A model generated the notes under the pieces. That model saw only the letters and a program-made list of their open reading frames with translations, did no database searches and was not told the DNA's origin. 64,000 nt of DNA from an uncultured Alphaproteobacteria bacterium (GTDB taxonomy: Bacteria > Pseudomonadota > Alphaproteobacteria > RF32 > CAG-239): contig CAKQRB010000052.1 of assembly GCA_934271195.1 (NCBI GenBank), positions 4,352 to 68,351 on the forward strand, written 5' to 3'. Positions 5,814 through 47,731 of the stretch are shown here, in pieces. How positions within the stretch are numbered: the stretch's first letter is position 1; each line of letters starts with the position of its first letter. The translations under genes were made by a program, and so were the position numbers.

Positions 5814-8267
5814 ATGAAGTTAGTTATTGTAGAGTCTCCGGCCAAAGCCAAAACCATTAACAAATACCTCGGCAGCGACTATAAAGTCCTTGCCAGCTTC
5901 GGCCATATTCGCGACTTGCCGAGCAAAGACGGCTCCGTCAAACCGGACGAAGACTTTGCAATGAGCTGGGAACTCAGCCCCGGCGGTCAAAAGCGCCTCA
6001 AAGATATTATTGACGCAGTCAAAGAAGCCGACACGATTGTCCTCGCCTCCGACCCGGATAGAGAAGGAGAAGCCATTGCCTGGCATATTTTGGAAGAATT
6101 AAAAGCCAAAAAGAAAATCAAAGACAAAAAAATCGAGCGCGTTGTCTTTCATGAAATCACCAAACGTGCGGTAACCGAGGCCATTCAAAACCCGCGCACG
6201 ATTGATGACAATCTCGTTTCTGCCTACATGGCCCGCCGCGCTTTGGATTACCTTGTCGGTTTTACATTATCACCTGTTCTGTGGCGCAAGCTTCCGGGAT
6301 CAAAATCCGCCGGCCGCGTTCAGTCCGTCGCCCTGCGGTTGATTTGTGAACGCGAAACCGAAATTGAAAAATTCAAACCGGAAGAATACTGGACGGTCGA
6401 TGTTGACTTAATCACCAAAACTCAGGCGCTCATCAAGTCTCACCTGATAACGCTGGACGGTAAAAAGCTGGAAAAATTTGATATCAATACCGAAGAAAAA
6501 GCTCTTGCCGCCAAAGCCAAAATTGAAGCGCAAGAATTCAGTATTGCCAGTGTTGAACGCAAAAAAACCAACCGCTATCCGGCTCCGCCGTTCACAACCT
6601 CGACTTTGCAGCAGGAAGCCGCCCGCAAGCTGCGCTATTCTGCCAAAAAGACCATGCAGATTGCCCAAAAGCTTTATGAAGCGGGTTTAATCACTTATAT
6701 GCGTACCGATGCGGTCAATCTGTCACAGGAGGCCGTAACCGCCTGCCGCGACGCGATTCTAAAATATTTTGGCGAAGCCTACCTGCCGAAAACAGCTAAA
6801 GAATACAAGACAAAATCCAAAAACGCTCAAGAAGCACACGAGGCCATTCGTCCGTCCGATGTCATGAACACGCCGAAAAAAATGGAAACAAAACTGGATG
6901 CCGACGCCCACAAGCTCTACGAGCTGATCTGGAAGCGTACCGTCGCCTGCCAGATGAATCCGGCCGTTCTTGACAAAGTCACCATTGATTCCATTTCTGC
7001 AGACAAACAAATCATTTTGCGCGCCAACGGACAAGTCATCAATTTTGACGGCTTCTTAAAACTTTATCAGGAAAGCAAAGACGACAGTGATGAAGATGAT
7101 GAGAACAGGATTCTGCCAAACGTGGAAGAAGGCGAAAACGTTGACAAAGGCGAAATCACAACCGCCCAGCACTTTACTACGCCGCCGCCGCGCTTTACCG
7201 AAGCCAGTTTGGTTAAAAAGCTGGAAGAACTCGGCATCGGACGCCCGTCGACTTATGCTACGATTATTTCCGTTCTGCAGGAACGCAAATATGTTCGGGT
7301 AGAAAAATTGCGCTTTATTCCGGAAGACCGCGGTCGTATTGTAACCGTATTTCTGGAAAACTTTTTCAAAAAATATGTAGAATATGATTTCACTGCCCAG
7401 CTGGAAGAATATCTTGATGATATCTCCGCCGGCGAGATGGAATGGAAAAAGCTGCTTGGCGGCTTTTGGGCAAAATTCATCAAAACAGTTGAATCGGTAC
7501 AGCCGTTGCAAATTACCGAAGTCATTAACAAAATTGACGAGGCCTTGTCGTTTCACTTGTTCCCGCCCCGCGAAGACGGCTCTGACCCCAGAGCGTGTCC
7601 GGAATGCGGTACCGGCCGTTTAAGTATCAAACTAGGAAAATTTGGTGCCTTTATCGGTTGCTCCAACTATCCGGAGTGCAAATACACCAAGCCGCTGGTT
7701 GATACGAGTGATGAAGAAGCATCAGATTCTCCCAAACCCAAATCCGGCGAAGATAAAGTTCTGGGCGAATTAAACGGCATGAAGATTTATCTCAAAAAAG
7801 GCCCTTACGGTTTTTATTTGCAATTGGGTGAAGACGCAACGGCTACCACAGAAAAGCCTAAACGCTCGGCCTTGCCGAAAAACTTGAATCCGGAAGAAGT
7901 TACTTATGAACAGGCATCAACCTTACTGAGCCTGCCCAAACAGCTCGGCAACGGAATTGAAGTTAATATCGGAAAATTCGGACAATATATCAAACAGGGC
8001 GGCAAATCAAAGTCTCTGACCGGTAATGATAACATTTTCAACATTACCTTGGAACGCGCCGAAGAAATTTTGAAAAACGTTGCCGAACGTCCGGTCGGAA
8101 AAGTTATCGGCCGGCATCCGAAGGATAAAGCCGATATCACGCTGAATGTCGGCCGTTACGGACCTTACCTGAAATGGGGTAAAAATAATTATGCCCTGCC
8201 TAAAGCCCTCAAAGATAAGGAACCGACTTTGGAAGAAGCCCTTCAGGTCATTAATGCAAAAAAATAA
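5814..8267 (+). CDS. topA: DNA topoisomerase I
   Basis: 817 aa. Toprim N-terminus (MKLVIVESPAKAKTINKYLG...), topo IA core and a C-terminal zinc ribbon (CPECG...CSNYPEC). Confidence 0.95.
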   Translation: MKLVIVESPAKAKTINKYLGSDYKVLASFGHIRDLPSKDGSVKPDEDFAMSWELSPGGQKRLKDIIDAVKEADTIVLASDPDREGEAIAWHILEELKAKKKIKDKKIERVVFHEITKRAVTEAIQNPRTIDDNLVSAYMARRALDYLVGFTLSPVLWRKLPGSKSAGRVQSVALRLICERETEIEKFKPEEYWTVDVDLITKTQALIKSHLITLDGKKLEKFDINTEEKALAAKAKIEAQEFSIASVERKKTNRYPAPPFTTSTLQQEAARKLRYSAKKTMQIAQKLYEAGLITYMRTDAVNLSQEAVTACRDAILKYFGEAYLPKTAKEYKTKSKNAQEAHEAIRPSDVMNTPKKMETKLDADAHKLYELIWKRTVACQMNPAVLDKVTIDSISADKQIILRANGQVINFDGFLKLYQESKDDSDEDDENRILPNVEEGENVDKGEITTAQHFTTPPPRFTEASLVKKLEELGIGRPSTYATIISVLQERKYVRVEKLRFIPEDRGRIVTVFLENFFKKYVEYDFTAQLEEYLDDISAGEMEWKKLLGGFWAKFIKTVESVQPLQITEVINKIDEALSFHLFPPREDGSDPRACPECGTGRLSIKLGKFGAFIGCSNYPECKYTKPLVDTSDEEASDSPKPKSGEDKVLGELNGMKIYLKKGPYGFYLQLGEDATATTEKPKRSALPKNLNPEEVTYEQASTLLSLPKQLGNGIEVNIGKFGQYIKQGGKSKSLTGNDNIFNITLERAEEILKNVAERPVGKVIGRHPKDKADITLNVGRYGPYLKWGKNNYALPKALKDKEPTLEEALQVINAKK

Positions 8268-18549: not shown

Positions 18550-18639
18550 ATAATTATATATTTAATAATTCAAAACTATTAAAAGTTAAAACAATAAAAT
18601 TCTTTTGTAAACTGCAAATTTAATATTTTTATAGAATTC

Positions 18640-18985
18640 ACTCTTTTCTTTCCCATATTTTCCTCTTCATATTCTCCCTTATTTCTGTTCACCGACCTTA
18701 TTTTCCACCTCTCATTTTCCGCTTCACATTTTACTCCTCCAACTCCTTTGGCCTCTTCTTTTCTCTCTCACTTCAATACTTATCTTCTCATCTCTTATTT
18801 CAGCCCTCTGCTCATACTTCCAACCATTCTCCTTATCCCCACTTTCTTCTCTCACACCTCGCGGCTTTCCATTCCCCTTATCTTCTGTTTCTCTCTTTCC
18901 TTCCACCTTAGCCTCTTTTAGCCAAAATCCCCTCTGTTTTTCCCGCTCCTCTGCCCAAAATTTCAACATTATTCTTCATGAGTAT
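18640..18985 (+). repeat. Polypyrimidine (CT-rich) tract, copy 1 of a repeated promoter-bearing cassette
   Basis: About 345 bp with almost only C/T on the plus strand. The 3' roughly 100 bp is near-identical to 42110-42207 (…ctttagccaaaatcc[c/t]ctctg…ctgcccaaaatttc[a/c]acattattcttcatgagt[a/g]tttgaca). Confidence 0.8.
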
Positions 18986-19014
18986 TTGACATTATCGTTT
19001 CTTTATGATATACT
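18986..19014 (+). promoter_or_regulatory. Near-consensus sigma70 promoter of Cys-rich paralog 1
   Basis: TTGACA (18986-18991), 17-bp spacer ending in TGA (extended -10 TG), TATACT (19009-19014). Then about a 28-nt leader with SD GGGAGGAAG before the ATG at 19050. Confidence 0.75.
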
Positions 19015-19049
19015 GGTCTTAGGACTTGAACTTTTTAGGGAGGAAGCCG

Positions 19050-20417
19050 ATGAAGAATATTAACACTATGCTACACATGAAACTAAACTCTGCGGTGTCA
19101 GTTTTTGCTGTTGCCGCAGCTTTCTCGGTTTTTCTCCCAACCTCCACATTTGCAGGTGTCTGCTTCCTGCCCGACTGTGCTGATGATGTACCTCTTATTG
19201 AACCAGATGTTAAATATTGTGAAAGCAACGGCTTCACCTACTATGCTGACGGCAAGTGTCCGCAATATTATGCCAATGTCGGAAAATGTTCCCGTGACGA
19301 CCATTATCTTAAATGCGACGCCGCGAAGTGGTGTAAACAAAATGGATATAACACGACCTCATGCTCCATTCCTAAATATGTTGACACTCCTTGTCCGAGT
19401 GACGGTTCTCTTTACAAACAATGCAAGACTGACAATCCCCGCGCTTGTCAGGAGGCCGGTTATACCAAGACTTGTCCTTCCGGTCAGAAACTTAAAAAGA
19501 ACTCCAGCCGTTGCTCTTATGATAATTCTTACGGAACCTGTTGTAAACCGTCAGGTTGTCCCGCTCATACTTCATTAACCTCTTCGTCCTACGGAACTAA
19601 CGGTACTGATGGCTGCGAATATACCTGTTATTACACCTGCAACATGAACTGCCCGTCCGGTACTTCAACTTCCAACCCCGGAGGTTGTGGCGGGTCGACA
19701 CGTAACGGATGTAACACAAAAACTTGTTATTATCCTTATCAATCATGCTGCACACCAAAGTGTTCAGATGAGCATGGTTGCTCATGTGGAACAACTTCCG
19801 TTTCTGACGGATGCGGCGGAACTTGTACAAAATGTAAATCTTGTTGTAATCGCTACTCTTCAAACTGGTGTTCTGTTCACTCAACCTGTCATGGAGATTG
19901 CTGCTCTGATGGAACAATAAAACCTTGTGATACGCAATGCGGGGGTTCAGGTTGCTCTACTTGTAATAGCTCCTCTTCAAACTGGTGTTCCGTTCACTCG
20001 ACCTGTCATGGAGATTGCTGCTCTGACGGATCGATCAAACCTTGTGACACACGCTGCGGCGGATCAGGTTGCTCTACCGGCGGCGGTGGCGGCGGCGAAA
20101 CGGGTGGAAGTTCTAGCTGTTCTGGATACAGCTCTTGTTCAACTGAGTGTACTGGCGTAACCAACACCACACCTCACTGTCAAAATCGTTATAATGATGG
20201 CAGCGGTTACAATTATATCGCTCTGGTATGCAATCTGAATATTTCCAGAACCCGCGTTACCTGCAACGGACAAACCGAAACTGATGGCGGTATCGCTTAT
20301 GAACAGCTAGACCGCTGGAGCACAGGCAACCAAACAAACGACATAGCAGCTTGCGAGGCAAAACGCAAAAACACGACCTGCGTCTGCTCAAGTTACCGCT
20401 GGCCATACAACTGTTAA
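19050..20417 (+). CDS. Secreted hyper-cysteine-rich protein, paralog 1 (unknown function)
   Basis: Start is set at the ATG after SD GGGAGGAAG (the ORF track begins upstream at a TTG at 19026). Sec-type signal peptide (MKNINTMLHMKLNSAVSVFAVAAAFSVFLPTSTFA), no lipobox. The mature part is very Cys-rich with many CxC/CC/CxxC spacings and is Gly/Ser/Thr/Asn rich. It carries a 39-aa tandem duplication. Paralog at 42274-43422. Confidence 0.85.
   Translation: MKNINTMLHMKLNSAVSVFAVAAAFSVFLPTSTFAGVCFLPDCADDVPLIEPDVKYCESNGFTYYADGKCPQYYANVGKCSRDDHYLKCDAAKWCKQNGYNTTSCSIPKYVDTPCPSDGSLYKQCKTDNPRACQEAGYTKTCPSGQKLKKNSSRCSYDNSYGTCCKPSGCPAHTSLTSSSYGTNGTDGCEYTCYYTCNMNCPSGTSTSNPGGCGGSTRNGCNTKTCYYPYQSCCTPKCSDEHGCSCGTTSVSDGCGGTCTKCKSCCNRYSSNWCSVHSTCHGDCCSDGTIKPCDTQCGGSGCSTCNSSSSNWCSVHSTCHGDCCSDGSIKPCDTRCGGSGCSTGGGGGGETGGSSSCSGYSSCSTECTGVTNTTPHCQNRYNDGSGYNYIALVCNLNISRTRVTCNGQTETDGGIAYEQLDRWSTGNQTNDIAACEAKRKNTTCVCSSYRWPYNC
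19857..20077 (+). repeat. In-frame tandem duplication inside Cys-rich paralog 1
   Basis: Two 104-bp units (19857-19960 and 19974-20077) separated by 13 bp, giving a 117-bp (39-codon) period and roughly 90% identity. They encode SSNWCSVHSTCHGDCCSDG(T/S)IKPCDT(Q/R)CGGSGCST twice. Paralog 2 has a single copy. Confidence 0.85.
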
Positions 20418-20429
20418 TCGCATTTATTA

Positions 20430-20485
20430 GCAAAAAACTCTCTTTTTTCCGCCCTGTAAAGGACAGAAAGAAGAGAGTTTTTTAT
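20430..20485. terminator. Bidirectional rho-independent terminator between convergent genes (Cys-rich paralog 1 and ftsZ)
   Basis: aaaaa-ACTCTCTTTTTTCC…GAAAGAAGAGAGT-tttttt: a 13-bp stem with one mismatch, an A-run on one side and a T-run on the other. Confidence 0.6.
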
Positions 20486-20510: not shown

Positions 20511-22211
20511 TTATCTTCTGCGCAAGAAAGACGGAATATCCAGATTCATTTTATCTTCATAGTCATTGTCGGCAAAAGACGGAGAAACCGGCTCCTGAAA
20601 ACGCTCGTTTTCTTTCATCTTTTTACGGTTTCTTCTGGCAATTGAAAAACCGGTGACTCTTTCAATCAGGGTCGGCGTATGTTCTTCTTCGTCGTCAACA
20701 ATGAGTTGCTCCGGTTCTTCTCTCTTCGGAGCAAAAATACCCGGATTATGGTCCGGAAACAGTTCCGGTTCTTCCTCAACAACTCTCACTGTCGTTTTGG
20801 CAGCAAAAACATTGTCGTCAGATGCCAGAATATTATTCAATGTACTGGCATCATTAGCGGATGTATCTTCGTTTTTGTTAATAATAGCTTTGAACAAAGC
20901 CGAGGCTTTTGGCATTTCACCCATGGCAGAAGATTTTTCAATCATGTCAAAATCTTCAAAACGGCTTACTTCTGCGGGAGCTGCCGCTGCAGGAGCCGCA
21001 ACTGTCTCTGCGGCGTCTTCCTCGATTCGCTCTTCTTCAAACGAAACTATCTCTGCAGCATCAATAGCTTCTTCCATTTCTACAGCCTTATCAATATCAT
21101 GGGCTGAGAACTTCTCCAAATTTGAATCAATTTCAACATTTGGAGCAATCGGAGCCGAAACTTTTTCTTCTGTAAAGCTTTCGGCAATATAATCTTGCGC
21201 TTTCGGCGCCTTGGCCTTAACACTGGCTTTTTCGCCAATACCGGTAGCCACGATAGACACACGGATTTTTCCGACCAAAGCTTCATCATAGCTGGAACCG
21301 AAAATAATATTGGCATCTTCATCAACTTCTTCTTTAATGCGGCTGGCCGCCTCGTCGATTTCAAACAATGTAATGTCGGAACCGCCGGTAATATTGATCA
21401 ACACGCCTTTGGCGCCGCGCATGGAACAATCGTCAAGCAAAGGATTGGAAAGAGCCTGCTCGGCAGCCTTCACGGCACGATCCTCGCCTTCGGCTTCGCC
21501 TGTTCCCATAATCGCCTTGCCCTTGTCTTCCATGATCGACTTAATATCGGCAAAGTCAAGGTTAATCAGCCCCGGCATCATCATCAAATCGGTAATGGAA
21601 CGCACACCGGCATACAAAACATTATCCGCCATCACAAAAGCATCGGCCAGCGTTGTCTTTTTATCGGCAACCCGAAACAGATTCTGGTTCGGAATAATGA
21701 TAATACTGTCTACTTCACTGGTAAAAGTCTCAACAGCGCTTTCGGCTGTTTCCATTCTTTTGCGGCCTTCAAACTGAAAAGGCTTGGTCACCACGCCGAC
21801 AGTCAAAATCCCCTTTTCTTTGGCAATTTTAGCCACAACCGGAGCCGCGCCGCTGCCCGTACCGCCGCCCATACCGGCAGTAATAAACACCATATTGGCA
21901 CCTTCAAGCTCTTTCTCAATCTCCTCATGGGCTTCTTCCGCCGCCAGTTTTCCGACCTCTGGCCGCGCACCGGCGCCTAACCCTTGAGTTGTCTCAAGAC
22001 CAAGCTGGATTTTGCGGCTGGCAGCAGAATGAGCCAGAGCCTGAGCATCCGTATTGGCAACAATAAAATCCACACCTTCCAGATTTTGCGCAATCATGTT
22101 ATTTACGGCATTTCCGCCGCCGCCACCGACACCGATGACCGAAATCCGCGGTTTCAAATGCATAACTGTTTTCTCAGGAACGGCTAATTTGATTGACATG
22201 ATGCTTCTCAC
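20511..22211 (-). CDS. ftsZ: Cell division GTPase FtsZ (long C-terminal linker)
   Basis: GGGTGTG-type tubulin signature ([15 protein letters not shown]…), then a long disordered linker and a conserved C-terminal peptide (DIPSFLRRR). The true start may be an internal Met (MSIKL at about 22199). Confidence 0.95.
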
Positions 22212-22279
22212 TCCAAAATACTAAAATACACTTTGGATACCAGTATACGCATTCAATAATTAAGTTTTAGTTACCAATA

Positions 22280-23539
22280 TTAAAAATTTTGTTTTATCCA
22301 CGAGAAAATTTTGCCCAATCCGCCAACGCTGCGAACCGATTTATTAATAATTTTATTCGGACGTTTTTCCGTATAATTCAGGGCATACATCAACAAGCCG
22401 ACACAAGTTGAATAAGCCGGATTCGTAAAGACCTCTGGCTGATTGATGTCAGCCTTTGGCTTCCATACCCGCACTTCCTTGTCCAACACCATTGTCGCAA
22501 CTTCGCGAATACCCGGAAGCTGACTGCCGCCACCGGTCAAGACCACACGATGACTCGGCATATCTTTCAGCCCCTGTTCTTCCAGTTTCATATTGACAAG
22601 TTCAAAAATTTCTTCGATCCGCGGCGTAATAATACTAATCAAATCAGCCTTGGTAATCTGGCGTATGCTGCTGTCGTCTTCCTCTCCGACCGGATAAACG
22701 TTAATTGTTTCTTCTTTGTCTTTGCTGGTCAAAAAAGCACAGCCATGATAAGTCTTCAGACGTTCGGCATTGGCAATGGATGTCGTAAGCCCGTAAGCAA
22801 TATCATTTGTCACATTATTTCCACCTACCGGCAATGCCGCAAAATATACCGGATATCCGTGACGGAAGGTAGCAATGCTGGTTGTTCCGCCGCCAATATC
22901 AATAACGGTCGCTCCGATTTCTTTCTCGTCTTCCACCAGACAGGCCAGTCCGGAAGCATAAGAAGAAAAAGCCCTGCCGACAATTTCGAGATGTGCGTTC
23001 TCAATCACTGTTGAAAGATTACGATATGTAATTTCCGGCACCAACCCGAGCACAATGTCAACAGCCAGCTTTTCAGCAAAAATATTTCGCGGATCCTTAA
23101 TCTCCTCACCGCCGTCCAGACGATAGTTGGTCGGCAGGCAATGCACCAGATCACACCCGTCGACACTGATTTTGTTCAGCCCTTTTTCCAAAACCTTGTT
23201 CAAATCAGCTTCGTTAATCGGACGGTTTTTATTAAGAGAAATCGCCGCATTTTTGATAGAACTGTGTACCTTGTCACCGGAAATATTGACAATAATTTTG
23301 CTGATACGTTCGTTGGCGCGCTGTTCTGCAGCCTCAACAGCATTGCACACTGCCAGTGTCGCCTTGTTAATATCTGTTACCACGCCGTTTTTAATACCGC
23401 TGGAAGCATTGTAGCCATAGCCGGCAATTTTAATTTGCCCTTCACGGCTGACTTTCGCAATCACGCAACAAACTTTTGAAGATCCCACGTCCAAAGCTGC
23501 AAATGTTGACGACTTGTTCAAGTTCTCCCCCTTCTCCAA
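22280..23539 (-). CDS. ftsA: Cell division protein FtsA
   Basis: 419 aa actin-like ATPase (ALDVGSSKVCCVIAK…). ftsQ-ftsA-ftsZ order. Confidence 0.9.
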   Translation of the reverse strand: MEKGENLNKSSTFAALDVGSSKVCCVIAKVSREGQIKIAGYGYNASSGIKNGVVTDINKATLAVCNAVEAAEQRANERISKIIVNISGDKVHSSIKNAAISLNKNRPINEADLNKVLEKGLNKISVDGCDLVHCLPTNYRLDGGEEIKDPRNIFAEKLAVDIVLGLVPEITYRNLSTVIENAHLEIVGRAFSSYASGLACLVEDEKEIGATVIDIGGGTTSIATFRHGYPVYFAALPVGGNNVTNDIAYGLTTSIANAERLKTYHGCAFLTSKDKEETINVYPVGEEDDSSIRQITKADLISIITPRIEEIFELVNMKLEEQGLKDMPSHRVVLTGGGSQLPGIREVATMVLDKEVRVWKPKADINQPEVFTNPAYSTCVGLLMYALNYTEKRPNKIINKSVRSVGGLGKIFSWIKQNF

Positions 23540-23574
23540 ACTTTCCGGTTTGTTTTACGGCAACGGCCTCCTCA

Positions 23575-24444
23575 TCAGGTTGCCCTTTCCTTGCCGTTAT
23601 TAAGCTTAAGCGGTTCTTTAATAGCCGTTTTCTTAAGCTTGATAATCACCTTATCCCTTAACCTTAAATCAATTATGGTTAATTTACGTTTAAGAATCCC
23701 TTTTGTCACATTTAATTTTAACAATTTTTTCCATGCTTTTTCAATTTTCTCTTCCGGCAATTTTACGGTAATACCGTTCCGAATGTCGTCCAAAACCAGA
23801 TTCCAACGCCGCTGCGAAATATAATTCGCCACTTTCACCCGTTTAAAAACAGCATTGTCTTTTTGAATAACCTCAAGCAATGCATTAATATTTTCCGGCG
23901 CTCCTGCCCCGACAATCAGCAAAATCGGCTGATCCGGTTTAAAATCAGCATGAATAACCTTGCCATCTTCATCTATCGGATAAAACTTTTCCGAAATCTG
24001 CCAAATTGACTTCACCTGCTTTTCAACAATACCGATTTGCACCACATTCGGCATAAAAGATTTTTTAACCACTGCCGATTTCACCCACGGCAGTGCCTCA
24101 ACCCTTTCTTTAATCTCCGCTACATTAACCTGAAAAATATTATCATCACGGCTCAGCCTGACTGCTTGCCGCAATTCCTCGGCGCTTGTTTTTTCATGCC
24201 CGAACACCAAAACCTCGTCCACGCCAAAACCGTGCTTTCCGCTAAAAACATAAAACTCCTGCGCCCATTCGCTAAACTGTTTGCTGACCAGACTTTGTTT
24301 AACCGTCGCAGTTAAAGAAGCCAAAACCAGAATCACCCCGAGCACAATCAGACTGCCAACCAGACGATAAAGCCACTCTGCCGGAAGCCTGACAATATCT
24401 TCCAACGGATCGGGCGCTATTTGGGTCTTGCTCTTTCCAAACAT
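23575..24444 (-). CDS. ftsQ: Cell division protein FtsQ
   Basis: Single N-terminal TM followed by POTRA-like domains. Start placed at the Met whose ATG overlaps the murB stop (TAATG); the ORF track extends to 24480. Confidence 0.7.
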   Translation of the reverse strand: MFGKSKTQIAPDPLEDIVRLPAEWLYRLVGSLIVLGVILVLASLTATVKQSLVSKQFSEWAQEFYVFSGKHGFGVDEVLVFGHEKTSAEELRQAVRLSRDDNIFQVNVAEIKERVEALPWVKSAVVKKSFMPNVVQIGIVEKQVKSIWQISEKFYPIDEDGKVIHADFKPDQPILLIVGAGAPENINALLEVIQKDNAVFKRVKVANYISQRRWNLVLDDIRNGITVKLPEEKIEKAWKKLLKLNVTKGILKRKLTIIDLRLRDKVIIKLKKTAIKEPLKLNNGKERAT

Positions 24445-25379
24445 TACTTCTTCATAATTCCCATGCGTTTGACTTCCCACTCTAAAACGATGGAAGTCTT
24501 TTCCTTAACCCTGTTAATAATCTCCTCTCCCAGCGTCTCAATATCGTTAGCTGTTGCCTTACCGGTATTAATCAGAAAATTACAGTGTTTTTCCGAAACC
24601 TTGGCACCGTTAACGCTCAACCCGCAACAGCCGGATTTCTTAATCAGTTCCCAGGCCTTCAAACCCTCGGGATTTTTAAAGGTTGAGCCGGCCGTTTTTT
24701 CATTATACGGCTGATTGGCAATTCTGTACTGCCGCTGCTCTTCCAAAATACGGGCAATATTTTCCTTCTTGTCCTTTGCTGCCCGAAAAGTAATGGACGT
24801 AATAATCCAGTCATCGGGAAAAAAGCTGCTTCGATAAGAAAGCATCAAATCATCGACCGTCACCGTTTCTTTTTCGCCACGACCGTTTACAATCGTCGCA
24901 CGGGCAATCACGTCTTTTACACACCGCCCGAAACAACCGGCATTGGTCTTGACCGAACCACCAATAACGCCGGGAATGGAGCACAAAAACTCCAGCCCGC
25001 CCAGCTCATTCTCCAGCATAATCTTTTTCAAATCGGCATTACGTACGCCGGCAAAACAGGTAATTTCATTATCCTTTATTTCAATCTGCTTAAAATATTT
25101 GCTGTCCAGACGAATAACTACTCCGGTAATTCCACCGTCGCGCACCAACAGATTAGAGCCGCCGCCGACCACGCATACCGGCAGATTATACGGCATCATC
25201 TTAAGAAAAAAGCCCAAATCGCCTTCATCTTCCGGATGATACATTACGTCAGCCGGTCCGCCGACGCCAAACCATGTATATTTTGACATCGGCACGTCGA
25301 TATCATAACGTCCCCTGACTTCAGGAAGAAAATCTACCAGTTTTTTTCTCTTCGGCCACAGCCGTTTTAACCTCAACAT
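24444..25379 (-). CDS. murB: UDP-N-acetylenolpyruvoylglucosamine reductase MurB
   Basis: 311 aa. FAD-binding PCMH domain (WFGVGGPADVMY…) and MurB C-terminal domain. Confidence 0.9.
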   Translation of the reverse strand: MLRLKRLWPKRKKLVDFLPEVRGRYDIDVPMSKYTWFGVGGPADVMYHPEDEGDLGFFLKMMPYNLPVCVVGGGSNLLVRDGGITGVVIRLDSKYFKQIEIKDNEITCFAGVRNADLKKIMLENELGGLEFLCSIPGVIGGSVKTNAGCFGRCVKDVIARATIVNGRGEKETVTVDDLMLSYRSSFFPDDWIITSITFRAAKDKKENIARILEEQRQYRIANQPYNEKTAGSTFKNPEGLKAWELIKKSGCCGLSVNGAKVSEKHCNFLINTGKATANDIETLGEEIINRVKEKTSIVLEWEVKRMGIMKK

Positions 25380-25393
25380 TTTTCCTCCTGATT

Positions 25394-26509
25394 TTATCTT
25401 GCTGAAATTTCACGCTCCACCGCGTCGGCAAAACGCTGCGCAGCATCATTAATTGCGGTCTTTTTGGCATTGTCAGACATTTTTTTCATCTTTTTCGGAT
25501 TCGCAATCGCCTCTTTCAAAATGCCGGACAATACTTCCGGCGTAAAATCTTTCTGCCGAATAACCTCAGCTCCTTTGGCTTCTCCCAAAGTCTGGGCATT
25601 GTACGACTGATGATCATCGGCGGCAATCGGCAGCGGAACCAAAACTGACGGCAAGCCGGCAATTGCAATCTCAGAAACCGAAGACGCCCCCGCCCGCGAC
25701 ACAATCAAATCCGTTGAAGCATAAAGCTCGTCCATATTGTCAAAAAAAGCAGAAACCACAACCTCGGCTCCACAACCCCGATAAGCGTTTTCAATCAGCG
25801 TTATGTCATCTTTCCGGCATTGCTGAAAAATCTTCATCTTTTTTTGCTCAAACTTATCCAAAGCAGCTACCGCAGTCGGCACAACTTCACTGAATACTTT
25901 TGCCCCTTGGCTTCCGCCCAAAATCAGCAATTGAAAAACATCATCTGCCGTACGTTCTTTATATTTTCCTTCTCCGGTTTTGACAATCGCTCCCCGCACC
26001 GGCATACCGGTCAGCAGCGTTCTGACATTTGTCGGCGTATATTTTACATTTTTAAAACTCTGCGCAATCAATGAAGCATATTTGCTCAAAAACCTGTTTG
26101 TCCGACTCATGACTGCATTCTGCTCATGCAAAATCAAATCCGTTCCGAGCAGAATAGCCGCCATTGATGCCGGAAAAGAGGCATAACCGCCAAATCCGAC
26201 CACACATTTCGGCCGCTTTTTCAAAATCAGGAAACCGGCTTGCAAAATACCAATGCATGTTTTGAACAAACTCTTAAGCTTAAACCATTTTGACTTTCCG
26301 ACCATCGCTCCGGCCCAGACCGCATAATTTGGAATCTCACCCAGATGCCCTTTATAATTATCTTTACCGCGGCTGTCGGTAATCAGTGCCAGCCGGTATC
26401 CCCGCTTTAACAGTTCCTCTGCCAGAGCCTCGGCCGGATAAACATGACCGCCCGTTCCGCCGGCTGTTAAAAAGATTAAAGGTTTTGCTTTCTTTTTAGT
26501 ACGTTTCAT
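25394..26509 (-). CDS. murG: UDP-GlcNAc:undecaprenyl-PP-MurNAc-pentapeptide GlcNAc transferase MurG
   Basis: Glycosyltransferase family 28 (LIFLTAGGTGGHVYPAEALAEEL). Start set at the internal Met (MKRTKKKAKPLIF) overlapping the ftsW end; the ORF track extends to 26605. Confidence 0.85.
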   Translation of the reverse strand: MKRTKKKAKPLIFLTAGGTGGHVYPAEALAEELLKRGYRLALITDSRGKDNYKGHLGEIPNYAVWAGAMVGKSKWFKLKSLFKTCIGILQAGFLILKKRPKCVVGFGGYASFPASMAAILLGTDLILHEQNAVMSRTNRFLSKYASLIAQSFKNVKYTPTNVRTLLTGMPVRGAIVKTGEGKYKERTADDVFQLLILGGSQGAKVFSEVVPTAVAALDKFEQKKMKIFQQCRKDDITLIENAYRGCGAEVVVSAFFDNMDELYASTDLIVSRAGASSVSEIAIAGLPSVLVPLPIAADDHQSYNAQTLGEAKGAEVIRQKDFTPEVLSGILKEAIANPKKMKKMSDNAKKTAINDAAQRFADAVEREISAR

Positions 26510-27632
26510 CTTTATCCTCCGCATGAACATTTTTTCGGGTAATTGCCAGCAACATCCCCATTCCCAGCGCTGTCGCCAAAACCGAAGACCCGCCGTAAGA
26601 AACAAAAGGCATGGTCATTCCTTTGGTCGGCATCAGGTGCAGCGTGGACGCCATATTAATAATGCCCTGAACACCGAATGACGCACACAGGCCGGAAGCC
26701 GACAAAATAATAAACAAATTGTTGTCTTTAAGTGATATGATCATTGAACGTATAACTACTATGGCAAAGACTGCAACAATAAACAAGCACAAAATCAATC
26801 CGTATTCTTCTGCCGCTACCGCAAAAATAAAATCGGTATGCGCATCGGGAATATTCATCTTAACTACGCCTTCGCCTGGGCCTTTGCCAAACAAGCTGCC
26901 GTTCTGGAAAGCCTCCAGCGACTTGCGCACTTGATAACTGAGTTCGTTGCCGGAAGCCAAAAATTGGTTCACGCGGCTATGCACATGGTCAAATGTAAAA
27001 TAAGCCGTCACCAGCATAGCCAGGAATCCCACTCCCAGCGCCGCCACGAATTTTATGGATAAACCGGCCAGAAAGAACTGAAAGACCCAAATACAAGAAA
27101 CCACACATGACATCCCGAAATCAGGCTGCAACAACAATAAACCGACCGTTAAAACAAACAGAAAAAGAGAAATCAGATTTCCCGGAAAATTTGCCGACTT
27201 ATTCTGCCCATCAAACAACCACGCCGCAACGACAATAAAAGTCGGCTTGACAAATTCGGAAGGCTGAAGTGTAAAACCCAGAATTCTGATCCAACGCGTG
27301 GCGCCCTTGGCTTCAAAACCCCATATCAGCGTAAAAACCATCAGAACAATCGTTACGGTATATCCCAAAATCGCCACCCTGCGGATAGCCTTCAAACTTT
27401 GCATGGATAAAAACAGCATCAGGGACAACGCCAACGGCATAAAAAACAGCTGCCGTTTTACAAAATGATAACTGTCCGCCCCGATCCGGTTAGCCACCGA
27501 CGGGCTGGCCGAAAAAGTCAGCAGCAATCCGACCATAACCAAAGACAAAATCAACGACAGCAGAATCTTGTCAACGGTCCACCACCAGTTGCTCAAAACG
27601 CTTCGGGAATTTCTGGCCAGATTAATAATCAT
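26496..27632 (-). CDS. ftsW: Cell division SEDS protein FtsW
   Basis: 378 aa polytopic SEDS protein. Lies between mraY and murG. Confidence 0.85.
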   Translation of the reverse strand: MIINLARNSRSVLSNWWWTVDKILLSLILSLVMVGLLLTFSASPSVANRIGADSYHFVKRQLFFMPLALSLMLFLSMQSLKAIRRVAILGYTVTIVLMVFTLIWGFEAKGATRWIRILGFTLQPSEFVKPTFIVVAAWLFDGQNKSANFPGNLISLFLFVLTVGLLLLQPDFGMSCVVSCIWVFQFFLAGLSIKFVAALGVGFLAMLVTAYFTFDHVHSRVNQFLASGNELSYQVRKSLEAFQNGSLFGKGPGEGVVKMNIPDAHTDFIFAVAAEEYGLILCLFIVAVFAIVVIRSMIISLKDNNLFIILSASGLCASFGVQGIINMASTLHLMPTKGMTMPFVSYGGSSVLATALGMGMLLAITRKNVHAEDKDETY

Positions 27633-27636
27633 TTTC

Positions 27637-28722
27637 TTATCTCACGGTTAAAGACATCAGGGCTGTCACGGCCAAAATCAGGGCCATAATCCAAAAACGA
27701 TTAACAACGCGGGTTTCCGGCCAGCCCGATTGCTCAAAGTGATGATGTATCGGCGCCATTTTGAAAAATCTTCTGCCGCCGGTCTTCTTAAAATAGGCTA
27801 CCTGAATCATAACGGATAAAGCCTCAATCACAAAAATCCCGCCCGCAATCGCCAGTATAATTTCCTGCTTGAGCATAACGGCAATCGTACCGAGCAAACC
27901 GCCCAAAGCCAGAGAGCCAGTATCACCCATAAAAACCTTTGCCGGCGCGCAGTTAAACCACAAAAAGCCCAGACACCCACCGATAACGGCAGCACAAACG
28001 ACGGCAACTTCGCCGACATTCGGCAGCTTGGCGATTGCAAAAACGTCAACCAGCGGACTGCCGCCGATATAAGCAAAAACCATAAACACAAACAAAGCCG
28101 CAATCATTAATCCGGAAGCCAGCCCGTCCAATCCGTCGGAAAGATTCACGGCATTAGACGACCCGACAATCACAATCATGGCAAAAGGAATATAAAACAG
28201 CCACAAATTAACCGCCAGATTAAAATAAGGAATTGTCAGGCTAAAGCGGTTTTGCTCAGGCGTCAGATAAGATACAATCAAGACCGAAACCAAAGCGGTT
28301 GAAAACTGCAGAAGCAACTTCATTTTTGCCGTCATGGCGTTTGCAGTCTGTTTTTTGACCTTGACATAGTCATCGACAAACCCCACAAAGCCATAAACCA
28401 GCAAAACCAAAATGCAAACCCAAACCAGAGGATCATTCCAATGCGCCCAGAGGATTGTTGACAGAATGCCGCTGCCCAAAATCATCAGGCCGCCCATTGT
28501 CGGCGTCCCCTTTTTGGTCAGCAAATGGCTCTGTGGGCCGTCTTCGCGGATTGGCTGGCCTTTTCCCTGATGAAGGCGCAAATAATTAATGATTCGCTCC
28601 CCGCAAACCAACACCAGAATAAAAGCGGTAAAAAAAGCGCCGCCGGTACGCCAACAAAGCGTAGAGCTGAAAACAGACAATTCATTCGCTGCAGACTGAA
28701 ACAAACTGTTAAACATTCCCAA
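27637..28722 (-). CDS. mraY: Phospho-N-acetylmuramoyl-pentapeptide transferase MraY
   Basis: 361 aa polytopic glycosyltransferase family 4 protein with MraY motifs (…MGDTGSLALGG…). Confidence 0.9.
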   Translation of the reverse strand: MGMFNSLFQSAANELSVFSSTLCWRTGGAFFTAFILVLVCGERIINYLRLHQGKGQPIREDGPQSHLLTKKGTPTMGGLMILGSGILSTILWAHWNDPLVWVCILVLLVYGFVGFVDDYVKVKKQTANAMTAKMKLLLQFSTALVSVLIVSYLTPEQNRFSLTIPYFNLAVNLWLFYIPFAMIVIVGSSNAVNLSDGLDGLASGLMIAALFVFMVFAYIGGSPLVDVFAIAKLPNVGEVAVVCAAVIGGCLGFLWFNCAPAKVFMGDTGSLALGGLLGTIAVMLKQEIILAIAGGIFVIEALSVMIQVAYFKKTGGRRFFKMAPIHHHFEQSGWPETRVVNRFWIMALILAVTALMSLTVR

Positions 28723-28789
28723 TAGTCCCCCGGATCATAAAATTTTATTTTTAATCCTACCCGCAATTTCTAAAATAAACCTTAAAATA

Positions 28790-29046
28790 TCTGATGAAAT
28801 AAAAAAACTTTTATCCTCTTTTTTCCTTTTATTTCTCTCCGTCCTCTTCCCCTTTCCCTATCTTGCCTCTTTTTTATTCTTCATTATTTTTCTCTTTCTT
28901 CTTCTCTTATCTCTCCGCTTTCGCCATTCTGCTTCTCTCATCATTCCAATTAACCAAAGTCCCCACGGCTTTCTTCACCTGTTATCCCAAACCCTGCTCG
29001 ACTTTTTATTGCATGTCAAATTTTGCACTTCTTTATGCTGTAGTAT
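28790..29046 (+). repeat. Polypyrimidine tract plus degenerate promoter, copy 3 of the cassette (orphan/decayed)
   Basis: CT-rich plus strand (about 28790-29000) ending in …ccaaagtcccc…cccaaaccctgc…ttgcatgtcaaattttgcacttctttatgctgTAGTAT. This aligns with the …ccaaaatcccc…gcccaaaatttc…tttgacattatcgtttctttatgaTATACT of copies 1 and 2, with indels in the spacer. No intact downstream gene. Confidence 0.6.
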
Positions 29047-29329
29047 CCGAATTGTCACCTGCAAGCCGGATGGCGCCGGTTTTATGCGGTGTCTTAAACT
29101 CCGTATTGCTCTGGCGGAATGTATGACAAAGTATGTGCTTTGAAAGGTTTGTCATTGCCGGACTTCAAACCGGCAATTCATAAAAAAAAGAAGCAGAGTG
29201 CCGACTGTGAAACGGTTTCTCGGATCAAGTCCAAGAATGACAAGAAAAGAATTTTATTAACCGTTCTGATCTGGGCACTCTGTTGTTCAGATAAAGAAAA
29301 GAGCAACGCGCAAGCTCTTTGCAAACTTT

Positions 29330-30103
29330 TTACTTAATGTAGCGGCGAGCTTCAACCAAGTCCTCTTCCGTATCAATATCCGCAGGAGCCTCTTGAACCA
29401 GCTTCATGTTATTAATAACTTTTGCCCGAATAGTCATGCCGTTTTCAAGTGCGCGCAACTGTTCCAAAGATTCGCGCGCTTCCAAAACGCCGACAGGCAA
29501 ATCTACCATCTTGGCCAGTGAAGAAGCTTTATAAACATAAATGCCGATGTGATGATACAAATCCTGATTCTTACACTTTTCCGGATTTCGGGTAAAAGGA
29601 GCCACCGCACGGGTAAAATATAAACAACGCCCTTCCGTCTCACCGTCGCGCAATCCCATGACAATCTTAACATTTGCCGGTTTTGCAGCTTCCTCGACAG
29701 ACTCAAATACCATTCCACAAGTTGCAATATCGCACCCCGTCCGCTCAATCATCTCAATCAACTGATTATTGATGTCCGGATCCACATTAATGGCATCGCC
29801 TTGAAAATTAACCACAATATCATACTTGCTGCCATCCGGATCAATCGTCTTTAATGCAGCGGCAATACGATCAGTACCGGAAGGCAGACTCGGATCTGTC
29901 AAAATAGCCTTAGCGCCAAACTTTGTACATTCATCTAAAATCACCTGATCGCCGGCCGCCACATAAACATCACCTTTAATTGCCTTGCAAACATTTTCAT
30001 AAACACGATTAATCAGTGTCTTGCCGTTAATATCGCATAATGGTTTGTTCGGCAGGCGGGTCGAGGCCATTCTAACCGGAATCATCGTCACTATTCTGCT
30101 CAT
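29330..30103 (-). CDS. kdsB: 3-deoxy-manno-octulosonate cytidylyltransferase (CMP-KDO synthetase)
   Basis: 257 aa (MIPVRMASTRLPNKPL…). Confidence 0.9.
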   Translation of the reverse strand: MSRIVTMIPVRMASTRLPNKPLCDINGKTLINRVYENVCKAIKGDVYVAAGDQVILDECTKFGAKAILTDPSLPSGTDRIAAALKTIDPDGSKYDIVVNFQGDAINVDPDINNQLIEMIERTGCDIATCGMVFESVEEAAKPANVKIVMGLRDGETEGRCLYFTRAVAPFTRNPEKCKNQDLYHHIGIYVYKASSLAKMVDLPVGVLEARESLEQLRALENGMTIRAKVINNMKLVQEAPADIDTEEDLVEARRYIK

Positions 30104-41881: not shown

Positions 41882-41914
41882 AAACGGGGTTTTAAATTAA
41901 ACCCCGTTTTTTTA
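41882..41914 (+). terminator. Rho-independent terminator of ettA
   Basis: AAACGGGGTTT-taaatt-AAACCCCGTTT followed by TTTTTT. Confidence 0.8.
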
Positions 41915-41924
41915 ACTCGACTTT

Positions 41925-42207
41925 CTGATATCCTCCCGCTCTTTCATTTTCCGCCTCTCGCCCCTCTTTCCTCTCCCGTTCCTGCATCACCACTCCTTCT
42001 TCTTTCCAATTTTGCCGCCTTTCCTCTTCACCTTCCAAGCTCTTTACTGCTCACACACCTCTTCTCTCATTCCTGTCTTTTTCCTTGCCCCACTTTCTCA
42101 TCACTTCCGTTTTTCTTTCTCTCTTTCCTTCTCATTCCTTTAGCCAAAATCCTCTCTGCTTTTCCTATTCTTCTGCCCAAAATTTCCACATTATTCTTCA
42201 TGAGTGT
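41925..42207 (+). repeat. Polypyrimidine (CT-rich) tract, copy 2 of the cassette
   Basis: About 280 bp CT-rich on the plus strand. The 3' roughly 100 bp and the downstream promoter/leader are near-identical to copy 1. Confidence 0.8.
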
Positions 42208-42236: not shown

Positions 42237-42273
42237 GATCTCTTAGTATTGGAACTTTTTAGGGAGGAAGCCG

Positions 42274-43422
42274 ATGAAGAATACTAACACTATGCTACAC
42301 ATGAAACTAAACTCTGCGGTGTCAGTTTTTGCTGTTGCCGCAGCTTTCTCGGTCCTCCTCCCAACCTCCGCTTACTGTGGCGTTTGCTTCCTGCCAGACT
42401 GTGCTGATGATGATCTTGCCGGTGGCGGCGGAAACATGAATAAGAATGAAGATTCTGCTTTTTGTGAAAGCAACGGCTTCACCCACTATGCTGACGGCAA
42501 GTGTCCGCAATATTATGCCGATGCCGGAAAATGTTCCCGTGACGACCATTATCTTAAATGCGACGCCGCGAAGTGGTGTAAACAAAACGGATATAACACG
42601 ACCTCATGCTCCATTCCTCAATATGTTGACACTCCTTGTCCGAGTGACGATTCTCTTTACAAACAATGCAAGACTGACAATCCCCGCGCTTGTCAGGATA
42701 CAGGTTATACTAACTCTTGTCCTTCCGGTCAGAAGCTTAAAAAGAACTCCGGACGATGCTCTTATGATTCTTCTTACGGAACCTGTTGTAAACCGTCAGG
42801 TTGTCCCGCTTATACTTCTCTTGCCTCTACCAACTACGGAACTAACGGTACTGATGGCTGCGAATATACCTGTTATTACACCTGCAACATGAATTGTCCG
42901 TCTTCTTATCCTTATTCTTCTGATCCGACAGGTTGTTCCAACAGCACGACAAACGGATGCGGCAATAAGTCATGTTATAACTCCGTTTCATGTTGTAATC
43001 GCTACTCTTCAAACTGGTGTTCCGTTCACTCAACATGTCATGGTGACTGCTGTACTGACGGAACAATAAAACCTTGTGATACGCAATGCGGTGGCTCTGG
43101 ATGCAGCAGCTCAGGAGGAAGCTCAGGAGGGGGAGGCTGCTCAAAATACTATACTTGGCAAAGTGGACGCGTAAATGGAAACTCAGTTACATATACCTAT
43201 TCTGTTACCTGTCAATGCTCAGACGGTTCATCCCGTGACTTGGGAACAGAAACAACTTCTAGTGGTTGCTGGGATTGCGATTATTCTCATCTTTCTTGCA
43301 AAGCCGGCTGTGGTTCAAGCTGTTATCACCGCAATTCAGCCTATGCCGGTGCACCTTACTATCACTATATTGATTATTCAGGTGAAGACTATTGCAACTC
43401 CTACACCGGCGGTTCATGCTAA
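42274..43422 (+). CDS. Secreted hyper-cysteine-rich protein, paralog 2 (unknown function)
   Basis: 382 aa. Signal peptide and the first roughly 170 aa are about 85-90% identical to paralog 1. It has a single copy of the 37-aa CCNRYSSNWCSVHSTCHGDCC(T/S)DGTIKPCDTQCGGSGCS module, a Gly/Ser linker, and an unrelated Cys/Tyr-rich C-terminus. Confidence 0.85.
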   Translation: MKNTNTMLHMKLNSAVSVFAVAAAFSVLLPTSAYCGVCFLPDCADDDLAGGGGNMNKNEDSAFCESNGFTHYADGKCPQYYADAGKCSRDDHYLKCDAAKWCKQNGYNTTSCSIPQYVDTPCPSDDSLYKQCKTDNPRACQDTGYTNSCPSGQKLKKNSGRCSYDSSYGTCCKPSGCPAYTSLASTNYGTNGTDGCEYTCYYTCNMNCPSSYPYSSDPTGCSNSTTNGCGNKSCYNSVSCCNRYSSNWCSVHSTCHGDCCTDGTIKPCDTQCGGSGCSSSGGSSGGGGCSKYYTWQSGRVNGNSVTYTYSVTCQCSDGSSRDLGTETTSSGCWDCDYSHLSCKAGCGSSCYHRNSAYAGAPYYHYIDYSGEDYCNSYTGGSC

Positions 43423-47474: not shown

Positions 47475-47555
47475 CGCCTGCATGAGAAGAACTCAAATTT
47501 AGAAAGGTGTAGAATGAGACTAATAAGGCGGCTTTTAGCTGCGAGAAAAATTTTA
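47475..47555. repeat. 81-bp direct repeat, copy A (ppdK-pyk intergenic)
   Basis: CGCCTGCATGAGAAGAACTCAAATTTAGAAAGGTGTAGAATGAGACTAATAAGGCGGCTTTTAGCTGCGAGAAAAATTTTA, repeated with one mismatch at 47651-47731. Confidence 0.85.
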
Positions 47556-47650: not shown

Positions 47651-47731
47651 CGCCTGCATGAGAAGAACTCAAATTTAGAAGGGTGTAGAATGAGACTAAT
47701 AAGGCGGCTTTTAGCTGCGAGAAAAATTTTA
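47651..47731. repeat. 81-bp direct repeat, copy B
   Basis: 80/81 identical to copy A, with a 176-bp period. Each copy is followed on the plus strand by a GTGTAC…GTACA(C/T) hairpin plus AATTTT(T). Confidence 0.85.

Follow-up and report, generated by a model that had tools for sequence, protein, structure and literature searches.

A probable regulatory remnant of a third secreted Cys-rich protein cassette between mraY and kdsB in an uncultured gut alphaproteobacterium

The stretch of DNA analyzed here, 64 kb of contig CAKQRB010000052.1 from an uncultured alphaproteobacterium (the window), carries two intact genes for Cys-rich proteins, at 19050-20417 and 42274-43422, each of which forms a cassette together with its upstream control region. 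Copy 1 is the cassette at 18624-20472, copy 2 is the cassette with the gene at 42274-43422, and copy 3, the subject of this report, lies in the 607-nt non-coding spacer between mraY and kdsB, in which there is no credible open reading frame (ORF). An initial annotation had taken this spacer for a third, decayed copy of the cassette. Our analysis indicates that copy 3 is very probably the 5′ regulatory remnant (28797-29326) of a third paralogue of this secreted Cys-rich protein family.

The evidence comes from orthologous loci. In a scan of species-representative genomes, the closest metagenome-assembled genomes (MAGs) by MraY identity were L004 (95%), L002 (94%), and L001 and L003 (90%). In L001, L002, and L004 the order is GGDEF, queA, kdsB, a Cys-rich coding sequence (CDS), its leader, promoter and CT tract, mraY, and ftsW, and the window has this same order without the CDS only. 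The CDS at this site is intact in all three, encodes 338-433 aa with the family signal peptide, and is oriented opposite to kdsB; its start is preceded by a Shine-Dalgarno sequence (SD) and a long leader, and these in turn by a promoter reading TTGACT-17-TATAGT, by the box TAGCCAAAATCC, and by a CT tract that varies in length. A further locus, L088, likewise carries an intact cassette at the orthologous position. Window positions 29107-29323 match the L002 leader (blastn, 77% identity, E 8e-40) and 29314-29498 match the kdsB end (92% identity), while a five-way alignment from the boxes to the junction (alignment A2) shows 28951-29323 to be colinear with the sister box, promoter, and leader up to the junction. 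The spacing in copy 3, that is, box, 53 nt, hexamer, 17 nt, and hexamer, is the same as in two-box cassettes, with no indels. Because the orthologous loci are colinear and the spacing is identical, copy 3 is, as judged from these alignments, a real third cassette in register, and the proof is provided by the orthologues and not by copies 1 and 2 of the window. The idea of a third, decayed cassette is thus borne out by the intact gene in the sister genomes, as is the positional homology of its promoter. The alignment within the window on which that idea had been based is mostly compositional, its register was wrong, and the differences are substitutions, not the indels that it had reported.

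Missing from the window are the SD, the CDS, and the 3′ flank, together ~1.4-1.55 kb. Neither tblastn nor blastn found a Cys-rich CDS in 28723-29329, and the SD GGGAGGA, the ATG, and the signal peptide MK..MLHMKLNSAVS are also absent from that interval. In L001, short imperfect direct repeats are visible on both sides of the deleted segment: its leader has AAGCTTTGGCAC, ending ...cgcgtAAGCTTTGGCAC, its 3′ flank has AAGCTCTTTGCAAAC, beyond the kdsB stop ...gacAAGCTCTTTGCAAAC, and the window reads ...cgcgcAAGCTCTTTGCAAAC at 29312-29326. We infer that the ancestor shared with the sister species had kdsB, a Cys-rich gene in the opposite orientation, and mraY, and that illegitimate recombination between the two repeats, one of them (AAGCT..TTG.CA) at the leader end and the other just past the kdsB stop, would have removed the SD, the whole CDS, and the 3′ flank. 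The orphaned control region would now be decaying through substitutions in the box, the -35, the -10, and the leader. The deletion is fixed in the species and is not an assembly artefact, because five contigs from five samples (L090-L094), retrieved by a look-up of identical KdsB, carry the same junction; they also share an identical 161-nt tract and show 99.4-99.5% identity to the window.

The hexamers of copy 3 are clearly altered. In a regular-expression survey of intact cassettes, TTGAC[AT] and TATA[GC]T were found in 16/16, as against TCAAAT and TGTAGT in copy 3, whose -35 keeps 2/6 matches to TTGACA and whose -10 is without the invariant A at position 2. A consensus scan calls no promoter-like site in copy 3 and scores copy 1 at 11/12; the only plus-strand promoter-like site upstream of the copy 3 tract is a 9/12 match at 28716-28743. 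The distal box has 2/12 changes relative to the 12-mer that occurs in exact form once per intact cassette. Between the window and its conspecific contigs there are 73 differences over 12.8 kb, and 8/73 fall in 29027-29216, which is 1.6% of the length, at ~7 times the mean density. This excess of substitutions in the leader and the weakness of the copy 3 match to leader module R (see below) fit relaxed constraint. As far as can be read from its sequence, the remnant most likely now does nothing beyond spacing kdsB and mraY.

Table 1. Coordinates of features in and around the mraY-kdsB spacer (positions in the window)
Feature	Position	Strand	Remarks
mraY	27637..28722	-	Heads the shortened dcw cluster; Pfam, and TIGR00445 (NCBIfam) with 377 bits
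AT-rich region upstream of mraY	28723..28796		80-90% identity to L001, L002, and L004
Polypyrimidine (CT) tract of copy 3	28797..28957	+	Non-repetitive; 87% C+T
Decayed distal cassette box	28951..28962	+	TAACCAAAGTCC vs consensus TAGCCAAAATCC; 10/12
Decayed proximal box	28983..28994	+	TATCCCAAACCC vs GCCCAAAAT or TAGCCAAAATCC; alignment A2, pairwise alignment to L002
Presumably dead promoter	29016..29044	+	-35 TCAAAT (29016-29021), 17-nt spacer, -10 TGTAGT (29039-29044)
Leader module R, copy 3	29056..29146	+	nhmmer; alignment A3
Cassette-specific hairpin modules	29149..29283	+	Hairpin 29154-29177; stem 29194-29217/29259-29282; decayed inner hairpin
Distal leader module	29246..29315	+	aaaagaattttattaacc...gagcaacgcgcaagc; precedes SD and ATG in relatives; blastn vs L002, alignment A2
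Deletion junction	29312..29326		AAGCTCTTTGCAAAC; joins the leader to sequence 4 nt from the kdsB stop
kdsB (CMP-Kdo synthetase)	29330..30103	-	Pfam PF02348 and NCBIfam TIGR00466

The layout of the spacer is summarized in Table 1. The AT-rich region is the presumed promoter region of mraY, and a consensus promoter scan of it found no sigma-70 site for mraY on the minus strand. Gene callers placed the mraY start 2 codons further in on the conspecific contigs, and an exact-protein look-up with the TTG-start MraY gave no match. The proximal box of copy 3 stands ~22 nt from the -35. In the hairpin modules, the stem 29194-29217/29259-29282 is a long-range one. A 72-aa ORF at 29119-29337 was ruled out as coding, since it is broken by a 1-nt indel in conspecific contigs. 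Nothing credible was obtained when the spacer and the L002 leader were compared with Rfam at E<=10, the whole window had no Rfam match at the gathering score, and a scan for tRNA and tmRNA found none.

The leader is modular. Module R, of ~90 nt, gave 12 nhmmer matches, all of them in cassette leaders, and the match in copy 3 is the weakest and most divergent (alignment A3 covers this module in L001, L002, L004, and L081-L089). The fragment 29084-29110, which had been read initially as the remnant of a gene start, lies inside module R; it shares only the 9-mer TGCGGTGTC with the Cys-rich genes, at chance level (z 0.8; 81/300 shuffles reach the score), and the whole CDS is deleted, so that no gene start survives in the spacer. 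A riboswitch was considered for the leader and dropped: the consensus structure of module R is essentially nil (RNAalifold, -1.96 kcal/mol), and there is no Rfam match. Module R also contains a mini-ORF of 6 codons at 29123-29143 (ATG ACA AAG TAT GTG CTT TGA, MTKYVL*), preceded by a conserved ACGGGA. Its frame and stop are kept in 10/12 module R copies with some synonymous changes (GTG/GTA, CTT/CTC), and it may encode a regulatory leader peptide.

In the 1.497 Mb of sequence examined in total, i.e., the window plus the fetched loci, the hairpin modules and module R are confined to the ~450 nt that follow a cassette box. Their number and order differ among the leaders of L095-L097 and of L081-L089; L097, L096, and L095 encode an identical Cys-rich protein behind leaders of 287, 392, and 600 nt (positions 1880-2520). 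In L004 (~6800-7330) and L088 (~1100-1530), the first promoter of the mraY-site cassette is weakened (TTTAAT / TACAGT in L004), and the gene follows an AT-rich insertion, which carries another promoter-like site (TTGACA...TATTAT), and a leader of a different kind. Mosaic intergenic repeats are familiar from E. coli BIME/REP and pneumococcal BOX elements, and the cassette leader is similar to these in that it combines short hairpin and non-hairpin modules whose number and order vary between copies and strains. Unlike BIME/REP and BOX, the cassette modules are confined to the leaders of one family and are not dispersed through the sequence examined.

The Cys-rich genes themselves have no Pfam or NCBIfam match. 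Their homologues form 299 clusters at E<=1e-5, all of them unnamed or hypothetical proteins from MAGs of gut Alphaproteobacteria. Copies 1 and 2 share the near-perfect promoter TTGACA-17-TATACT (11/12). The exact 12-mer box, at 18919-18930 and 42141-42152 in the window, was found at 13 loci, with one occurrence in each cassette. The proximal box is separated from the -35 by 22 nt; the distal box, which not every cassette has, stands another 33 nt upstream, corresponding to three helical turns, so that the distance from box to -35 is 22 or 53-55 nt. Such an arrangement is typical of activator binding. The copy 1 gene also contains a 117-nt tandem duplication (19844-20077, 2 copies, 88% identity), and copy 2 has a single related unit at 42988-43104.

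Members of the family are gained and lost, as had been proposed initially: the gene is present at the copy 3 site in the sister genomes, and neither L001 (18231-18256) nor L003 (8441-8541) has any of the copy 1 cassette, whose tract, promoter, and gene together span 18624-20472. At this empty site the ftsZ terminator abuts the upstream region of the neighbouring gene. The left boundary of copy 1 coincides with the start of its CT tract, and comparison with the empty site in L001 and L003 revealed no target-site duplication or inverted repeat. A look-up of the conspecific copy 1 protein gave a contig that begins only 31 nt ahead of the gene. In a conspecific strain (L101), the first 960 nt of the ftsZ-adjacent gene (L101 1-960) are 89.5% identical to copy 1 (19019-19960), whereas its first 657 nt are 93.6% identical to copy 2 (42243-42902). 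Because this gene is closer to copy 2 than to copy 1 while the flanks are 99.4% identical, the comparison indicates gene conversion between paralogues within the species, as judged from the alignments.

Families of variable surface or secreted proteins with pseudogenized or partly deleted members are known from Neisseria (opa/pilS), Helicobacter (hop), and Mycoplasma (vlp/vlhA). The Cys-rich family is similar to these in being multi-copy, with a conserved 5′ region (here box, promoter, signal peptide, and N-terminal domain) and variable 3′ parts, and in that copies are gained, lost, and converted, one locus here being a presumably non-functional remnant. There are also differences. Unlike those families, the Cys-rich family is uncharacterized, and unlike promoterless silent gene copies, copy 3 retains a control region without a gene.

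The CT-rich tract that had been noticed in the mraY-kdsB spacer is real. With a criterion of at least 82% C+T per 100 nt in a sliding-window scan of both strands, the window has three such tracts only, at 18636-18956, 28797-28957, and 41901-42187, all on the plus strand and none on the other; the first and third precede the two intact Cys-rich genes. Given a background pyrimidine fraction of 52%, the three tracts are far beyond chance. Throughout the sequence examined, 13/13 tracts of this kind immediately precede a cassette box and are in the sense orientation. The tract of copy 3 has 3% G, 10% A, and a C/G ratio of 10; those of copies 1 and 2 have ratios of 6-8, and the C-G excess of the tracts is the highest in the window. 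The window as a whole is strand-asymmetric, with 16708 C vs 12136 G and 18704 A vs 16452 T on the plus strand, and all three cassettes lie on the C-rich strand.

The tract is optional in the family and variable in length, from 0 to ~410 nt, and is always on the sense strand. At the orthologous mraY site of six genomes it measures 29, 31, 144, 164, 262, and 305 nt, and three paralogues on one contig have tracts of ~110, 0, and ~410 nt. Only two-box cassettes were seen to have long CT tracts. Analysis of eight tracts by k-mer enrichment and autocorrelation revealed no enriched motif and no periodicity of 3 or 10-11 nt, and tandem repeat searches gave TRF scores of only 31-45, with nothing beyond 2-3 imperfect copies. 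Three candidate explanations were rejected for the window: a phase-variable contingency locus based on simple sequence repeats (no repeat array, and a tract identical in the six conspecific sequences, namely the window and the five metagenome contigs), H-DNA (longest mirror arms of 7-12 nt, no longer than in shuffles), and a pilE-type G-quadruplex (no motif in the three tracts of the window, with counts in relatives equal to those of shuffles). Segments are shared between non-orthologous tracts, namely window copy 1 with L088 and L088 with L100, and the alignable segments contain 25 C<->T, 22 Y<->R, and 10 A<->G substitutions. Our searches of the literature brought up no bacterial system in which promoters are preceded by long polypyrimidine tracts without repeats, and a survey reported that such runs are normally represented in most phyla (PMC4060949). 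A parallel is offered by the vlhA family of Mycoplasma gallisepticum, the promoters of which have a GAA-repeat region upstream (PMC6258824): in both cases each variable family member has, immediately 5′ of its promoter, a purine/pyrimidine tract with strand asymmetry, flanked by conserved sequence and differing in length between orthologues. In vlhA the tract consists of one trinucleotide repeated exactly, and its copy number (12) is believed to determine ON/OFF (PMC6258824), whereas the cassette tract, of 0-410 nt, has no repeat unit, periodicity, or enriched motif, and does not change in length among the six conspecific sequences.

Several points weigh against the reading of copy 3 as a dead remnant left by deletion. 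The promoter region resembles those of copies 1 and 2 only marginally (z ~2; the score is reached by 18/300 and 6/300 shuffles). The right-hand repeat differs in L002, and the microhomology at the junction is clear only against L001. The death of the promoter and the loss of function are judged solely by consensus rules. Finally, RNA from the remnant is predicted to fold strongly (z -3.9 for the plus strand and -2.8 for the minus strand), and the tract is unchanged among the six conspecific sequences; both points leave some small probability for a co-opted role.

The alternative that survives best, although we consider it unlikely, is that the tracts are functional cis elements constrained in composition, either Rho-loading insulators or some other orientation-specific element, and that copy 3 represents an emptied expression site, retained as insulator or terminator between kdsB and mraY or able to be re-armed by recombination with a paralogue.

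For the tract itself, the reading that we prefer, though it is unproven, is that of a composition-constrained, orientation-specific element, with a Rho-dependent insulator as the leading candidate. Sites for Rho loading (rut) are described as at least 78 nt of C-rich, G-poor sequence on the sense strand, unable to form structure (PMC6407284). The tracts are similar in being C-rich and G-poor, with C/G ratios of 6-10, and unstructured on the sense strand, and that of copy 3 has the composition of a rut site (>=78 nt, C>G, regularly spaced C, little structure). Unlike typical rut sites, they lie upstream of the cassette promoter and surpass such sites by far in length and in composition: a C/G >= 3 is reached by only 37 of 4494 validated predictions from E. 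coli (PMC6407284). Were a sense transcript to run into the cassette, a tract of this kind would load Rho on it and would thereby act as an insulator. Arguing against the Rho idea are the position of the tract upstream of the promoter, the many cassettes without a tract, and the neighbouring genes, since the upstream neighbour is divergent at 2/3 window copies and no sense transcript is known to cross. The tract may instead be a hitch-hiking spacer taken from a common pool.

For copy 3, an alternative still less probable than the emptied expression site, and one to which we give only a small chance, is that the remnant might have taken on a new role, be it as a structured non-coding RNA, a substitute kdsB terminator, or an upstream regulatory region or insulator for mraY. 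It would account for the fixation of the remnant, nearly invariant in the six conspecific sequences with a tract free of changes, for the strong folding mentioned above, and for the failure to detect a consensus mraY promoter; the terminator candidate is an antisense long hairpin with a U-run, from 29283 to 29180 on the minus strand, in which the hairpin is followed by CUUCUUUUUUUU. However, both hexamers and the box are mutated, the concentration of differences in the leader and the divergence of module R noted above also count against it, and with a divergence of 0.57% the lack of any change over 288 nt has no significance.

Reverse polarity, in which the gene-less state is ancestral and the sister species inserted a Cys-rich CDS behind an existing leader, is very improbable. 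Cassettes are indeed gained and lost as units elsewhere, as the empty copy 1 site in L001 and L003 shows. Against this, the gene is present in three sister lineages (MraY 90-95% identity) and in L088, a box, promoter, and leader without a gene would be senseless as an ancestral state, the window elements are degraded versions of those in relatives, and the junction lies inside the short repeat that flanks the gene in L001. Loss of the gene from the window is therefore the polarity we prefer.

The initial annotation had further tied the cassette to a rearrangement of the dcw cluster. The canonical order of this cluster is mraZ-rsmH-ftsL-ftsI-murE-murF-mraY-murD-ftsW-murG-murC-(murB/ddl)-ftsQ-ftsA-ftsZ. 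In the window (20511-28722) it reads mraY-ftsW-murG-murB-ftsQ-ftsA-ftsZ, colinear and co-oriented as in the canonical cluster; no murC, murD, murE, or murF was found anywhere in the 64 kb. It is correct, therefore, that the cluster stops at mraY, with no murF upstream, and that the cassette remnant sits at the junction. The same break was seen in all of the 62 gut-alphaproteobacterial mraY loci (L001-L062), which are without rsmH, ftsI, murE, and murF in the stretch retrieved upstream of mraY (10 kb in full for 36 loci), the sole exception being a MurE-like match ~6-7.6 kb upstream in L029. In the 40 loci listed, mraY is followed at once by ftsW, with no murD between them. The loci from Caulobacter, Brevundimonas, and Holosporaceae (L063-L080) have the canonical order rsmH-ftsI-murE-murF-mraY-murD. 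Unlike the canonical cluster, then, that of the gut-alphaproteobacterial clade is without its upstream half and murD throughout. A cassette or CT tract at mraY occurs in the closest relatives only, and L005-L062 have the break with no cassette there. Because the truncation is present in all 62 loci, almost all of them without a cassette, it is, to judge from gene order, ancient, clade-wide, older than the cassette, and unrelated to it; the shortened cluster would merely have supplied an intergenic site. That the cassette marked or caused the truncating rearrangement and retains a gene-start fragment is thus scarcely credible: its position immediately upstream of the first dcw gene speaks for it, and the clade-wide break and the chance-level 9-mer within module R speak against it.

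The weakest alternative, that the spacer is unrelated low-complexity DNA with a compositional resemblance only, has practically no probability left: the alignment of the copy 3 tract with the tracts of copies 1 and 2 does not, it is true, stand out from shuffled sequence (z 1.0 and -0.6), and the promoter similarity is marginal, but the orthologous loci align across box, promoter, and 220 nt of leader, and copy 3 has the identical spacing and the cassette-specific modules. The alignment check proposed initially, copy 3 against copies 1 and 2, would by itself have pointed mostly to composition, and the homology was rescued by the orthologous loci. Elsewhere in the window, two 81-nt direct repeats (47475-47555 and 47651-47731; 99% identity, 176 nt apart) occupy an intergenic region near the PPDK gene.

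Overall, copy 3 is an ordinary gene-family scar, such as a variable gene family leaves behind as its members turn over. To connect the repeated cassette with the unusual dcw architecture was attractive but wrong, and this is hereby corrected. The cassette is now defined by concrete parts: an exact 12-mer box whose spacing is fixed, a promoter close to consensus, leader modules specific to the family, and, optionally, a non-repetitive pyrimidine tract of 0-410 nt. The junction, the decaying promoter, and the fixation together make copy 3 a clean, dated example of gene loss in a fast-turnover secreted family of uncultured gut Alphaproteobacteria. Potential novelty could be confined to the non-repetitive polypyrimidine tract. 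If the tracts are indeed functional elements, the combination of tract, box pair, and modular leader would represent an expression cassette of a new kind, serving a hypervariable family of secreted Cys-rich proteins in gut Alphaproteobacteria.

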